Positions 10,215-58,744 of a DNA stretch of 64,000 bases are shown piece by piece (within the stretch, counting starts at the first letter, position 1; each line of letters starts with the position of its first letter). The DNA is from Candidatus Babeliales bacterium. Lineage in GTDB: Bacteria > Babelota > Babeliae > Babelales > JBFXEV01. The position numbers and the translations under genes were made by a program. The stretch lies in NCBI GenBank assembly GCA_050179755.1, contig JBFXEV010000001.1:969994-1033993 (forward strand), read 5' to 3'. The notes under the pieces are model-generated. The model saw nothing but the letters and a program-made list of their open reading frames with translations, had not been told where the DNA came from and made no database searches.

Positions 10215-10562
10215 ATGCGTATTTTAATTAATTCACTATTAAAATTAACGTTATTGGCACTCATTATATCTGTGGGCAGTGTTACTGCTATGGAATATGG
10301 GGATTTGCCTCAAAGTAATGCAGCGCCAACTATTGGCTCATGGGCATATGCTTTTATGCAGCCCTCAACTCCTGCAAAATCAGTAAAAGCAACAAATAAG
10401 GCACTGTATGCAGCTCCCGTAGCTGCTGCCGCGCCCGCATTATTATCTAAAAAAACTATGCTCATATTGGCAGGCGGATTGCTTACGCTATGGGCAGTTA
10501 AAAAAGTATACAATTGGATGTATAGTAAACCGAAGAATGGAGAAGTAACATGTTATCAATAA
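10215..10562 (+). CDS. Hypothetical exported protein with C-terminal hydrophobic helix
   Basis: GGAGG RBS; signal peptide ending VTA-ME; TM-like LILAGGLLTLWAV. Confidence 0.75.
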   Translation: MRILINSLLKLTLLALIISVGSVTAMEYGDLPQSNAAPTIGSWAYAFMQPSTPAKSVKATNKALYAAPVAAAAPALLSKKTMLILAGGLLTLWAVKKVYNWMYSKPKNGEVTCYQ

Positions 10563-11518
10563 AAAAACAATTATTAGTGCTCGCACTTACGGCAAGCGTT
10601 GCAGCACCAGTTTGCGCAATGGACCAGCAAGATTCATCAAGCTTGATCAATTGGAAAACCGGAGCAGTAGCTGCTACCGCGCTTGTTATAGGATTAGGCT
10701 GTGCTGCAAGATGGCTAACTTTTGGTACACCAGTAAAACAATTAGATACACTTGAGCAGTCAACTAAGGTTGCCGGTCAAGCAGATCAAGGCCAGGCTGC
10801 GCAACAACCTTTGCAAGAAGATAAATCGCAAGCACTTCAACAAGATAAAACTCAAGATGCACAAGCGCAAAAGCCGGTTCAAGATGTAGATGCTCAAAAT
10901 CAGCAGCCATCAGCAACGGCAATAAAGCGTCGCCCAGCGGGTCAAGCCGGCAGAAGGTTGCCTACAAGAAAGCCTGTAAAAACGCAGGATGAGCTTAATT
11001 TGGATGTAGAGGCTCCTGTTCAAGATGAACCAGCAGTTGAACCAAACGCAGCTCAACCAGCCGCTCCTGCGACCCAAAAACCTTTAAATGGAAAAGGTTA
11101 CGGAGTGAATCTTGGTGATCTTACAGCAACTAAATTAAAGAAAACAGTAAAAACTACCGCTACAGTTCCAGCAAAAGCTGCACAACCTAAGCCGCTTCCA
11201 CAAGTGCCAACGGCAAAAGAAGTGGTTGTTGAACAACCTACTGCAGATATGCTTGAACAATTTGCTCAAGAAATAGAGGATTTTAAAGCAATATCCCTTG
11301 CAAATCAAAAAAGCGAATTAGCAGCTACTGTGCAAGCATATGTTACACAACCAATACAAGATACTCAAAATCTTCTTAAAGTGTACGTGCAAATATATGG
11401 TGAGCGTGTAAAATCAAATGCGTTGGCCATTGCAATGACTAAGTTGTTTGCAACAAAAACGCCAGCACAAAGAAGTGCAGAATTCAATAACATTAAGCAA
11501 ATTCTTGGTGTGCGGTAA
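10550..11518 (+). CDS. Exported membrane-anchored effector-like protein with CPI-like and WH2-like motifs
   Basis: Signal peptide ending VCA-MD, TM segment, Q/P/A-rich linker, C-terminal helical domain shared with 12011-12610. Confidence 0.8.
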   Translation: MLSIKKQLLVLALTASVAAPVCAMDQQDSSSLINWKTGAVAATALVIGLGCAARWLTFGTPVKQLDTLEQSTKVAGQADQGQAAQQPLQEDKSQALQQDKTQDAQAQKPVQDVDAQNQQPSATAIKRRPAGQAGRRLPTRKPVKTQDELNLDVEAPVQDEPAVEPNAAQPAAPATQKPLNGKGYGVNLGDLTATKLKKTVKTTATVPAKAAQPKPLPQVPTAKEVVVEQPTADMLEQFAQEIEDFKAISLANQKSELAATVQAYVTQPIQDTQNLLKVYVQIYGERVKSNALAIAMTKLFATKTPAQRSAEFNNIKQILGVR

Positions 11519-11533
11519 CAGAGAAATATTGAG

Positions 11534-56900: not shown

Positions 56901-57799
56901 TTGCAGATGCTAATACGGCAGCACAACAAAACAAGTGGAACCCTTTATCTTCTCTTGCTTATCTTGCAGTGGAAAAGAAAAATTCTGCTTTACTTAAAGA
57001 AGTTATTGAAACAGCAGATGAGTCATTGTTAACAAGTGCAGTGTGGCGGGATTTTCATGAAGGTGTTGCTATCTTATTAGAAGCTGGTATTGTTCCCACC
57101 AATACACATCCAAGTGATCCCTTGATGGATGCAATACGAGCTAAATCTGTTGAGTGTTGTAAACTACTAGTGGAACATCAAACCGTGCGGTTTGTGCATG
57201 TAGAAAAAGCATTGCTACATGCACCAATTATGCGCATATTATTGCCAAAATTTGAACCATCACAAGAACAGTGTGCAGCGCTACTTGAAAAAGCAGTTGA
57301 TTCGTGTGCTGCAGATTCGGTGCGCATTTTGCTTGAGAAAACGCGTAATTTAAGTGGTGTTACTTCTAAGGGGCTTACGTATTTTCATATGATTGCACAA
57401 AAAGCACATCACTTTGGTGTTGATGAACGCAGCGCGCAAAATAAAGGTGCTCATTGGAGTGAACGAGTTAAAAATATTACCTGGTTGCAATCTTGGAAAA
57501 CGCGCGTTTTAGAAGGTAATGAATGCGCAGATACTCAATCAGAATCACGAGGAAAGGTTCAAGGCATTGTTGCAACTTTGCATGCGTTAATGACAACGCC
57601 TGTTTGCGCTAGCGCGCAAACGCACAAAAACGCACTTTTTTGGGCATTGCACGGGGGAGTTGGCAAACAGCAAATAAAGCCTTTTGATATGGCACAGAAA
57701 GCTGGTAATTCCACTACATTTTCTGATCTGTTTGATGTTGCTAAAGTTGAACAGTGGCATGCGGCAATTGATCGGGAGTATGAGAAGAAGGATGTATGA
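53930..57799 (+). CDS. Large exported ankyrin-repeat protein (1289 aa)
   Basis: VVA-ME signal end; many ankyrin repeats (TPLQLAA, GSTLLHRAA, GHTPLLNAA, GETPIFWAV, GATVLHWAA). Confidence 0.9.
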   Translation: MHKCFYSLFLVSSFVVAMEPNLTIQCDPALIPTYHECAQELQNNSWHKAVDTALLSAYAEHGDLHMFESRIGREKKLRDNQLLSWAMGSEFDVVRTLLRRGIAQTIGDSSWCSYIESALSDNNDLLATELLQAKADFDPQAGKMDWVTLLQWAASTGAINTARTLLEGPYGAKMVDASTKSAPFTPLQLAAQWQQVSNGVCYAEPLFSARKREMINLLLTHRAKFDVIITTRFGDRCVVGNEHTQSFVNWCVSQKYDDCLARLVERKQLCGDNVIKNDYSGVEQTLSSWAAGQGSLPLVKALVPMVDEKPKYQVDFTELIKRAVNWGRKPVIDYLGMHPATKRRKSTAQLMMHCAVSHGWLGTARALATHYGIENLTGEDDWYHTSEYFHDIAPNVSPAMVRQLLAWDCNPRAKNEQGNVPLMSVTAANNVQSTAVMLAAGCLLDEGNISALAATFSSNKTTPELFEQLLAYTSDRAHVREICVAQTGMTPVEFAVGKGYRMTKLVLEAGFDPNEYKQEHPLAFAVGHKDSELVALLLRHGADADITFEDGSTLLHRAAQHGSVVMLQHLFNAGVQPSVDENGHTPLLNAAYFNTPEVVSFLLNRNGPEAIRQIAYTLESHNDGPDISQTLFEYVIHQRRNDVVPVCQLLYELGADLERVNELGETPIFWAVRNSNAAALEWAVAQGARLDVTNQEGETPLSFLASQIEWVQEELLIAVLKGLSAYAGGVVPVMDAIELSKKYPLDNYWVSDEHVKVWKASLKFDPFEQIGLYCGTGLHKEYLREREVKPTLAARLKEIEQKNCRHGAYLFAQKMKEMFTGNDLEAVKQFVATNVNLCTYDVQHGATVLHWAAQNGHADLVRDLLENHGLKEVINKETIHKCAALSEAATAECAQILLDNGAAITPNVISRLIFQTNNEACGVILAHLDGAAFSQEDVQRLYESAAHNGNVLITQKFLELGAQPKIADLEHAVREQRVGVATLLAARGISIADANTAAQQNKWNPLSSLAYLAVEKKNSALLKEVIETADESLLTSAVWRDFHEGVAILLEAGIVPTNTHPSDPLMDAIRAKSVECCKLLVEHQTVRFVHVEKALLHAPIMRILLPKFEPSQEQCAALLEKAVDSCAADSVRILLEKTRNLSGVTSKGLTYFHMIAQKAHHFGVDERSAQNKGAHWSERVKNITWLQSWKTRVLEGNECADTQSESRGKVQGIVATLHALMTTPVCASAQTHKNALFWALHGGVGKQQIKPFDMAQKAGNSTTFSDLFDVAKVEQWHAAIDREYEKKDV

Positions 57800-58744
57800 A
57801 ATTAATTTTGCTGTGTTTATTAATGAGTGCGCATGCTGTTGCAATGGATACGCAGAATTCATGTGAAGCACATGAAACTCCACGTGTACTTGAGGGTGCT
57901 CTCCTTTCAAAAGAAGCGCGCCAAGCAAAGCTTGCTGAATGGTGGGGCACTAAAAAAATAAACGTGAAACAGTATCCAATGGCCAGTGCAAGTGGCTCTG
58001 GAAGATGGGATATATGCTTGTTGTTGGCACAAGAATATGGAGATGCATTAATAGAAGACGATATTCAAAAAGTATTTTCGCATGCAACTGCAATTAGTAG
58101 TTGTGGACGTATTGATGATTGCATTCCAGTATGTAGCGCATTCGTGCGTCTTGGCGCAAAGCCCACTGCCGATCAATTGTTATTTGCAATAAAGTGCCTT
58201 AATAATCCAATGGCACAATTTTTGATACAGAATGGTGTGACCATTGCGCAAGCTGCTGAACACCGAAAAATTGTGTATCACGGCAAACCATCATCTCTTG
58301 CAGAATTGGTAGTGTGTCTATCACGGCCTCATCTTAATAGGACCAAAGGGCTTGCGATGCTCCAAACAGTTATTGAGACAGCAAATGCAGGAACTCTTTT
58401 TAGTGCTTTGCGTGCTCATTGGGTTGAAGCGGTGGCACTAGTGATCAAGCAGCTTGCTGTGCGCGGTGAACCGTTACCCGCACAGGCTTTGAGCATTGCA
58501 ATAGTGGAGGAATCAGTTGAGTGTTGTAAGTTATTACTGGCCGCATGGTCAAGTGGTTACTTGGGAGCATATTCAATTACCGCATGATCCTGCAGTTCTT
58601 GAATGTTTGTTGTCTGAGTATGATGCTACACCAGAGCAACTGGCACGGTTTGAGGATTTTATCAATAACCCGCATAATGGTGGTTATGATATGAAAGAAG
58701 TAATGCGTGCCTATATTAAGCGAAGGAATTCGGAGTTGGCTTGA
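57796..58744 (+). pseudogene. Frameshifted exported paralogue of the C-terminal part of the large ankyrin protein
   Basis: SVECCKLL shared; similarity continues in the 58517-58744 frame (PHGQVVTWEHI vs EHQTVRFVHV), implying one extra base near 58540. Confidence 0.65.

Follow-up and report, generated by a model that had tools for sequence, protein, structure and literature searches.

The window analysed here is a stretch of 64,000 nucleotides from a protist-parasitic Candidatus Babeliales bacterium (G000:C1:969994-1033993), whose genome, G000, is a single contig of 1,525,295 bp with 39.1% GC and whose DNA is present in three runs of one landfill-metagenome study. The named public records with the most similar SecY are labelled Candidatus Babeliales, Candidatus Dependentiae and candidate division TM6. 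The window encodes 14 proteins in which methionine is the first residue after the predicted signal-peptide cleavage site (position +1), a feature pointed out in a first-pass annotation of the same DNA. All 14 N-termini translate as they were written there: in each, a short and mostly basic n-region leads into a hydrophobic core free of charged residues, and a small residue at -1 is followed by Met and, in 11 of the 14, by Asp or Glu. For three of them, the starts given in that annotation (11590, 12011 and 48461) are internal starts of longer open reading frames (ORFs) that begin at 11536, 11966 and 48506, respectively, and give signal peptides of normal length.

Four of the genes are tandem paralogs on the forward strand (10215-12610). 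The first (10215..10562, +) encodes an orphan protein of 115 residues without a Pfam family, with a signal peptide at residues 1-25 and the cut site VTA/MEYGD (the slash marks the predicted cut; Met codon at 10290), and the second (10550..11518, +) an orphan of 322 residues with VCA/MDQQD (Met codon at 10619). The third and the fourth encode orphan paralogs with ITA/MDSHQ (11590..12009, +, longest ORF from 11536; Met codon at 11662) and LSA/MDSQE (12011..12610, +, longest ORF from 11966; Met codon at 12080). Same-genus genomes contain an ortholog of the first protein (41% identical, VSA/MEYGD), four relatives of the second, all with xxA/M[DE], and homologs of the third and the fourth with VSA/MDASQ and ACA/MDADQ, respectively. 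In these four paralogs a second hydrophobic segment is present soon after the Met-Asp tail (near the C-terminus in the first), and the proteins may be membrane-anchored and not soluble.

The other proteins are dispersed over the window. The orphan encoded at 23639..24670 (-; 343 residues) has NYT/MEPQA (Met codon at 24607), an atypical site with Asn at -3 and Thr at -1, which we nevertheless consider correct, since two same-genus orthologs, 36-38% identical, have LCA/MEQ and LWA/MDP at the homologous place. An ankyrin-repeat protein of 261 residues with Ank_2 and Ank_4 matches (37812..38597, +; CNA/MEPVP, Met codon at 37866) has same-genus homologs with TQA/MEP and VKA/MEP, despite diverged signal peptides, and the homologs of an orphan of 133 residues (39054..39455, -; CIA/MVKIK, Met codon at 39395) have LAA/MIL and INA/MET. 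Five small exported genes stand in tandem on the reverse strand and encode orphans with LLA/MDPQS (47360..47767, 135 residues, Met codon at 47689), SFA/MEKTG (47767..48108, 113 residues, Met codon at 48036), TLA/MENAK (48138..48461, longest ORF to 48506, Met codon at 48386), AHA/MHTFT (48481..48825, 114 residues, Met codon at 48750) and LFA/MKRTI (48870..49151, 93 residues, Met codon at 49085), the last of which would be cut at SNA/SLFAMK if residues -3 and -1 alone decided. These five genes (47360-49151) have no BLAST match in the region of the same-genus genome G232 that is syntenic with the window; small exported genes at the matching place in that genome have LQC/MEI, LKA/MEG and LQA/MQP. 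Finally, a large ankyrin-repeat protein (53930..57799, +; 1289 residues, Ank_2 E 5e-55) has VVA/MEPNL (Met codon at 53981) and a same-genus ortholog, 46% identical, with LVA/MDPTL. The next gene (57796..58587, +) encodes an orphan of 263 residues with AVA/MDTQN (Met codon at 57844), for which 200 other genomes of the phylum gave no match. The sole match of this orphan is a segment of ~175 residues near the C-terminus of the neighbouring 1289-residue ankyrin protein (34% identical), of which it may be a partial duplicate that gained its own signal peptide and Met.

Signal peptides were predicted by a crude heuristic, which requires a hydrophobic core and chooses the cut from residues -3 and -1 alone, ignoring the mature side, and thus cannot favour Met at +1. 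It was applied to a greedy longest-ORF gene set (1509 ORFs, 91% of the genome covered). The heuristic is lax, flagging 49% of the ORFs, including membrane proteins and some cytoplasmic or Rossmann-type N-termini, so that the fractions of +1 Met given here are underestimates with noisy denominators. Identical scripts were run on 200 kb of Escherichia coli K-12, the control from which the rarity of Met at +1 is judged. In the window, 28 of the 72 ORFs are signal-like and 13 of these have Met at +1 by the -3/-1 rule, with a binomial tail of 2e-15 at the 2% background taken from E. coli K-12 (1/59). One of the 13, absent from the list of 14 proteins (29443-31008, TAA/MPN), is a false positive: the same-genus ortholog has AYA/QTTED, so the true cut is probably at NIAA/QDVEDL.

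The same feature was found throughout the genome. With cuts chosen from -3 and -1 only, Met is at +1 in 176 of the 742 signal-like ORFs (24%), the next commonest residues being Leu (73) and Gln (48). We also used a Met-anchored rule as a second detection scheme, which retrieves 266 ORFs; its strict form, [ACGST]/M-[DEQN], is present in 157 of the 1509 ORFs, and in the 200 kb of E. coli it has one match, a membrane protein. The -3/-1 rule alone selects the Met site in 106 of the 157 strict cases. Counts that need no cleavage prediction gave the same picture: 84 of the 142 AM[DE] tripeptides of the whole proteome are at residues 10-39, and Met stands just before the first charged residue after the N-terminal hydrophobic run in 171 of 911 ORFs (a lax selection), whereas elsewhere in proteins Met precedes Asp/Glu 1.5% of the time. 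The commonest tripeptides ending at that charged residue, with -1 unconstrained, are AMD (41), AME (31), AMK (13), CMD (11), GME (11), SMD (8), GMD (7) and SME (6). The observation made in the window is thus real and highly non-random.

Apart from the Met, the sites resemble canonical signal peptidase I sites. Among the 266 Met-anchored ORFs, residue -1 is Ala (126), Gly (50), Ser (34), Cys (34) or Thr (22), residue -3 is mostly Leu (55), Ala (54), Val (32), Ile (29), Thr (23) or Ser (21), and residue -2 is bulky, as at canonical sites. At +2, Asp (66), Glu (49), Gln (25), Lys (18) and Asn (17) dominate, small and hydrophobic residues are depleted, and 157 of the 266 proteins would begin with Met-Asp/Glu/Gln/Asn; when the cut is made by the -3/-1 rule, the values at +2 are 31% Asp, 26% Glu (57% together) and 9% Gln. 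Pro is enriched at +3 to +7, and the tail is flexible. The signal peptides of the Met class and of the other signal-like ORFs are alike in mean n-region charge (+1.46 vs +1.39), best 8-residue hydropathy (2.88 vs 2.89) and length (21.5 vs 20.5 residues), and no C-terminal sorting motif was found in the Met-class proteins. None of the 14 window proteins has Cys at +1, as a lipobox would require, and direct reading of their n-regions revealed no twin-arginine motif. In the genome, where Cys precedes the Met, the residue before it is mostly Leu, Trp, Phe, Thr or Met, and not Gly, Ala or Ser; LAGC/MEP at G000:509462-510076 is an exception and resembles a true lipoprotein. Cleavage exactly at the bond before the Met is, in all cases, a prediction.

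The rule is specific to one part of the secretome. Pfam searches covered 54 window proteins and, from 400 kb sampled elsewhere in the analysis of G000, signal-like ORFs in two batches, the 110 longest and then 67 of the remaining 104, this second batch comprising all 30 Met-class and 37 of the 56 single-pass non-Met proteins. The Met class of the sample (n=66) contains 20 ankyrin, WD40 or TPR proteins, 44 proteins without a family and two of another family, a macro-domain protein and an amino-acid permease, the latter a false positive. The non-Met class (n=95) contains nine repeat proteins, 46 proteins without a family and 40 of other families, including TamB, PBP, GH3, NamZ, peptidases C11 and M49, thioredoxins, FKBP, GDPD, PLD and binding proteins. 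A non-repeat Pfam domain is thus present in 2/66 Met-class and 40/95 non-Met proteins (Fisher 3e-9), so Met at +1 is not shared equally by the exported housekeeping proteins. In the window, the exported enzymes for which absence of the Met had been stated do lack it (SpoIID, VNA/FGAS; both PAP2 proteins, LHA/DHPH and SRA/FAVI). It is also absent from a glyceraldehyde-3-phosphate dehydrogenase (GAPDH; 18479-19600, +), with a convincing signal peptide (TYA/LPAHDE) and its domain from residue 39, and from an ATP-dependent DNA ligase (33693-35585, +) with a signal-like N-terminus (IYC/DIPRYT), two proteins that are conserved at 76-80% identity in a same-genus genome.

Of the 80 ankyrin ORFs of the genome, 43 are flagged by the Met rule, while for 18 no signal is predicted; among the signal-bearing ones, ~52 of ~62, counted by eye, have Met after a small residue. 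Eleven of the 18 form a single run of signal-less ankyrin genes outside the window (G000:C1:1396453-1408234). Where a signal-bearing ankyrin protein has no Met, the first residue is Val, Ala or Ser in 7/10 cases, while exported housekeeping proteins, which mostly begin with Gln, Asp, Glu, Lys, Phe or Leu, have a stabilising first residue in 6/25 (by eye; Fisher 0.02). Met-class proteins are also less conserved than the rest: portions sampled from 18 genomes belonging to other families contain homologs of fewer of them (14/126 vs 159/466). Within the secretome, the Met rule marks the ankyrin, WD40 and TPR proteins and the orphans.

Comparison with the syntenic region of G232 showed how differently the two classes evolve: housekeeping proteins are 65-98% identical, and Met-class proteins 31-49% identical or undetectable. 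Nevertheless, all 11 alignable same-genus pairs keep the small residue and the Met. We also compared paralog pairs within G000, chosen by homology beyond +20 only, and found identities of 24% at +1, 40% at -1 and 21% at -3, against ~7% at +3 to +16. A Met that is kept amid diverged flanks is not what is expected of a neutral relic, which would decay, and these alignments indicate that the +1 Met is under selection. The mature parts of the 157 strict proteins form 99 BLAST clusters, one of 45 members (ankyrin) and 86 singletons, and their signal peptides share 2.1 of 15 positions between clusters and 2.4 within them, which rules out a shared paralogous leader. Foreign origin was likewise rejected on composition: the GC content is 39.5% vs 39.2%, and both GC and GC3 (GC at third codon positions) of the Met class equal those of the genome.

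Neither is the Met simply the true start codon. Of the 157 strict genes, 60-62% (78% counting any allowed start) have a Shine-Dalgarno-like motif 5-20 nt before the start of the signal peptide, compared with 56% of other long genes of G000; before the cut-site Met the value is 3.8%, which is lower than the 9.7% found before random internal Met codons. Upstream of the Met codon there is no -10-like or purine-rich pattern; the bases are pyrimidine-rich, as the hydrophobic codons require. The codon after the Met is more often G/C-ending than the genome average (GAG 43% vs 24%), unlike start-proximal codons, and Asp and Glu together make up 43% of the residues after the Met, in comparison with 6% at the second residue of non-exported proteins of G000. 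In the public gene calls, all five window proteins checked, including those at 10215, 10550, 37812 and 53930, have the long form and not the Met-start form.

The +1 Met was then counted, as +1 Met over signal-like ORFs, in 19 other genomes of the phylum (families f1 to f18 as given below); the samples, of 40-200 kb each, are small and, for related genomes, not independent. Nine of them are motif-rich (G232 (f1) 14/35; G001 (f2) 14/79; G003 (f2) 15/56; G004 (f2) 9/52; G130 (f18) 13/38; G140 (f9) 11/37; G005 (f3) 18/94; G013 (f3) 12/67 and G018 (f3) 7/44) and ten are intermediate or poor (G055 (f2) 4/30; G011 (f3) 4/46; G027 (f3) 3/68; G048 (f9, same genus as G140) 5/69; G019 (f8) 3/41; G040 (f6) 6/105; G041 (f11) 3/82; G008 (f5) 0/75; G030 (f5) 1/51 and G010 (f7) 0/30). 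The Met rule is limited to some Babeliales lineages, with a patchy distribution, and is not phylum-wide.

We looked for machinery that could follow this distribution. Signal peptidase I is encoded in G000 by two genes of different architecture, and a compact and a split-match type are found across 61 genomes; the type does not account for the motif, since G004, with the compact type only, and G001 and G003, with the split type only, are equally motif-rich, while the motif is absent from G010 and G030, in which the type is split-match. Two secretin genes of ~860 codons, 4.7 kb apart, are located outside the window (G000:C1:499870-505052), and they are the sole secretion-system marker found among those searched in G000, in which VirB4 and FHIPEP gave no match. 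Secretin number was discarded as a cause, because the tandem pair is present in 61/61 genomes, with or without the motif; some families have a third secretin copy. An exported GNAT protein (G000:255642-256163) was also discarded, being present in 26/261 genomes and in 0/10 of the motif-rich f2; a second small GNAT with a signal-like N-terminus is encoded at G000:C1:217525-218139, outside the window.

A tentative associate is a fused methionine sulfoxide reductase, MsrA-MsrB (MsrAB), encoded in the window itself (61734..62825, -). A hydrophobic anchor or signal forms its N-terminus, and the domains, matched by PMSR (E 7e-62) and SelR (E 7e-46), begin at residue 46. Its gene adjoins that of the signal-peptide peptidase SppA (62870-63784, -), and the pair is adjacent in G232 too. 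MsrAB is present in 49/261 genomes of the phylum, with a patchy distribution and in several cases with in-frame stops, being sometimes a pseudogene. All eight sampled genomes with MsrAB are motif-rich (17-40%), three of which (G013, G140 and G130) were picked by the presence of MsrAB before the motif was counted, and the 12 without it have 0-19%. Within one genus, G140 has 30% and G048, which retains only a decayed SelR remnant, 7%. The area under the curve (AUC) for separating genomes by motif is 0.97 for MsrAB, but it is already 0.88 for Ku, a control gene of similarly patchy distribution, and two motif-bearing genomes, G005 and G018, have no Msr at all; for these reasons we regard MsrAB as a lead and not as a finding, and most of its association with the motif may reflect shared ancestry.

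Several further features were recorded in passing. An open frame of 61 codons at ~58757-58921 (-), 3 kb from the intact MsrAB gene and 80% identical to MsrAB residues 308-362, looks like a leftover fragment of a second MsrAB copy. Ku and a LigD-type ligase are encoded as a pair at 49461-51295 (+), and of the 69 genomes with a Ku match, 30 have a match interrupted by one or more in-frame stops, which may reflect pseudogenes or alignments that run past the gene end. A protein of 585 residues with a pretoxin-HINT domain (E 1e-6) is encoded at 59853-61610 (-), in the part of the window with the lowest GC content (~35%; 58-62 kb), and a second PT-HINT protein, with an Ntox37 domain, at G000:1208363-1209637.

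To our knowledge, the only comparable case of selection on the first mature residue is the Q-rule of Bacteroidetes. There, according to the available portions of the reports, Gln is at +1 of signal peptidase I substrates and is cyclised to pyroglutamate (PMC5837995, PMC10653852). Both rules are lineage-specific preferences for a single residue at +1 of normal Sec/signal peptidase I substrates, and both concern a large share of the exported proteome; the Q-rule, however, as far as those portions describe it, applies to most substrates and to the whole phylum, whereas the Met rule applies to one class, repeat proteins and orphans, and is patchy within one order. G000 does not follow the Q-rule itself, Gln being at +1 in 48 of 742 signal-like ORFs against 176 for Met and not the majority residue, nor does the Met class cover exported proteins generally (2/66 vs 40/95 with a non-repeat domain). 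The Q-rule has a partner enzyme, glutaminyl cyclase, in the same portions of those reports, while the candidate partners considered here, the exported GNAT and MsrAB, gave no association and a weak one, respectively. With classical Sec/signal peptidase I signal peptides, the Met-class proteins share the charge of the n-region, the hydrophobic core and the small residues at -1 and -3, and differ in the +1 Met, present in 24% of signal-like ORFs here vs 2% in the E. coli control.

Two eukaryotic parallels are also relevant. The host-targeting PEXEL motif of Plasmodium (PMC2408878) is short, stands just after a secretory signal and marks host-bound proteins, as is proposed here for the Met. PEXEL, of consensus RxLxE/Q/D, is processed in the endoplasmic reticulum by an aspartic protease dedicated to it, and in both cases an acidic or amide residue ends up close to the newly made N-terminus. 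PEXEL, however, is eukaryotic and depends on its own protease, whereas the N-terminus described here appears to arise directly from the cut by signal peptidase. In eukaryotes, Met is kept before Asp, Glu, Asn or Gln, which defines the NatB class of N-termini, and the 157 proteins that would begin in this manner belong to the same class; NatB N-termini are, however, made by translation and acetylated on the ribosome, while those described here would come from proteolysis in the bacterium. Signal peptides themselves are known to be abundant in this phylum: in the available portions of the genome reports they are assigned to 44% of the coding sequences and 78% of the ankyrin proteins of one Dependentiae isolate (PMC6561590) and to 79 of the 126 ankyrin proteins of Babela (PMC4378268), and the +1 residue is not mentioned in those portions of either report. 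Full-text searches of the literature revealed no description of a Met rule in Dependentiae/TM6.

Taken together, the canonical residues at the cut, the class specificity, the conservation amid divergence and the lack of any sign of internal initiation lead us to propose that Met-Asp/Glu is a mark carried by the mature N-terminus and read after cleavage, most likely on the host side. We put this forward tentatively, as a reading that may well prove wrong, and the reader of the mark is itself a postulate. In such a mechanism, signal peptidase I would cut an ordinary Sec-type signal peptide behind Ala, Gly, Ser or Cys, all small residues, and a fast-evolving, presumably host-directed secretome of ankyrin, WD40, TPR and orphan proteins would have been selected to begin with Met once cut, the next residue being usually Asp or Glu, in other cases Gln or Asn, ahead of a flexible, proline-rich stretch, the exported housekeeping enzymes being free of this constraint. 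Each delivered protein would then receive one sharply defined N-terminus, resembling the unprocessed N-terminus of a eukaryotic cytosolic protein of the NatB class, which, with its Met retained, would not act as an N-degron. That the Met-class proteins reach the host at all is part of the proposal.

A more specific form of this proposal, in which the N-termini are counterfeits of the NatB class that allow effectors to pass as native host proteins, to evade N-degron surveillance and perhaps to be acetylated by the host, seems to us rather doubtful. Mimicry of host N-termini had been suggested in the first-pass annotation, and part of the data supports it indirectly. About 70% of the Met class has Asp, Glu or Gln at +2, and the ankyrin proteins without Met mostly start with Val, Ala or Ser, which are stabilising at the first position under the eukaryotic N-degron rule; Met, moreover, combines two properties that few residues share, as it is not an N-degron and is unusable for signal peptidase at -1. 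The exported ankyrin-like proteins of f6, f9 and f11, however, show no preference for stabilising residues, and the principle is thus not general in the phylum.

Several further points weigh against a mark read in the host. All cleavage sites are predicted ones. Ala, Ser, Gly, Thr and Val at +1 are non-degrons as well, and stability alone thus fails to explain Met. NatB works on nascent chains at the ribosome, and acetylation of an imported protein would be unusual. Proteins with a membrane segment after the Met-Asp tail, such as that encoded at 10550-11518, may stay in the membrane. In addition, acidic residues just past the cleavage site are favoured in bacteria generally, and the depletion of small residues at +2 is expected in any case, since A-M-A would be cut after the second Ala.

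The mark could instead be read in the bacterium, as a tag for a second sorting step, in which a periplasmic factor recognises the Met-Asp/Glu-Pro-rich N-terminus and passes host-directed proteins over the outer membrane, by type II secretion or in vesicles, while housekeeping proteins stay behind. The class specificity and the flexible tail, enriched in Pro at +3 to +7, would fit such a tag, as would the two secretins of G000 next to the absence of VirB4 and FHIPEP matches, and the available portion of the Babela report gives type II secretion as the only system detected there (PMC4378268). An exported MsrAB could keep the exposed Met reduced, in line with the motif-richness of all eight sampled genomes that have it, three of them picked by its presence. 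Against this, no lineage-specific machinery was found, the tandem secretins being present in all 61 genomes and signal peptidase type not following the motif, the AUC of MsrAB barely exceeds that of Ku, and the motif occurs in the Msr-less G005 and G018; we know, moreover, of no linear N-terminal signal for type II secretion. We see a periplasmic tag as conceivable but on the unlikely side. Of the earlier interpretation, which had opposed an unrecognised export route to host mimicry, the class-specific signature itself stands, and we found no evidence for a separate route, as the signal peptides of both classes are alike in length, charge and hydrophobicity, and neither peptidase nor secretins track the motif. 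None of the three conditions that the annotation had named as refuting its view, a predicted cut elsewhere, an equal frequency in periplasmic housekeeping proteins or a true start codon, was borne out.

Explanations that dispense with a reader fare worse. If cytoplasmic or acquired genes with their own ATG had gained signal peptides upstream, the old initiator Met could have stayed at the junction and spread by family expansion, and traces of such events do exist: many proteins of G000 that are normally cytoplasmic have acquired signal peptides, for example GAPDH and DNA ligase, a relative of one Met-class protein in G005 has no signal and starts within ~2 residues of the Met, and a signal-less cluster of 11 ankyrin genes is present. 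Yet GAPDH and the ligase, which clearly gained signals, kept no Met, the Met has been kept while its flanks were randomised (11/11 ortholog pairs; 24% vs ~7% in paralogs), Asp/Glu follows it far more often than the first Met of cytoplasmic proteins (43% vs 6%), and the GC and GC3 values equal the genome's, all of which makes a historical relic improbable. Still harder to sustain is dual initiation, in which the internal ATG would serve as a second start for a leaderless cytoplasmic isoform: an in-frame ATG does lie exactly at the mature N-terminus, and methionine aminopeptidase leaves Met before Asp or Glu in the cytoplasm, but Shine-Dalgarno-like motifs are rarer there than at internal Met codons taken at random, the sequence ahead of it has neither a -10-like nor a purine-rich pattern, and the GAG-rich following codon is unlike start-proximal codons. 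A general shift of signal peptidase I towards Met at P1' in this lineage, for which the limited distribution of the motif and the two peptidase architectures of G000 might be quoted, is barely credible. The class specificity already largely refutes it, as housekeeping substrates of the same cell do not follow the rule, and motif-rich genomes (G004, G001 and G003) differ in peptidase type, which G010 and G030 have in the split-match form with no motif. The Met rule is neither an artefact of annotation nor a general preference of the peptidase.

The Met rule described here is a lineage-specific cut-site rule, unusual in its class specificity, for which the mechanism outlined above is a proposal. 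Selection that is both strong and confined to one protein class can, as this case shows, act on the residue with which a secreted protein begins after cleavage, and the rule points to a reader of the +1 residue, in the bacterial envelope or in the host. For annotation, start codons are easily misassigned where an in-frame ATG coincides with the cut, although the five calls checked were right. By setting ankyrin, WD40 and orphan proteins apart from the housekeeping enzymes of the same cell, the rule would also provide a testable predictor of the host-directed secretome of these bacteria. If the N-termini were indeed counterfeit, they would amount to mimicry at the scale of a proteome, and the rule would tell from sequence which Dependentiae proteins enter the host.

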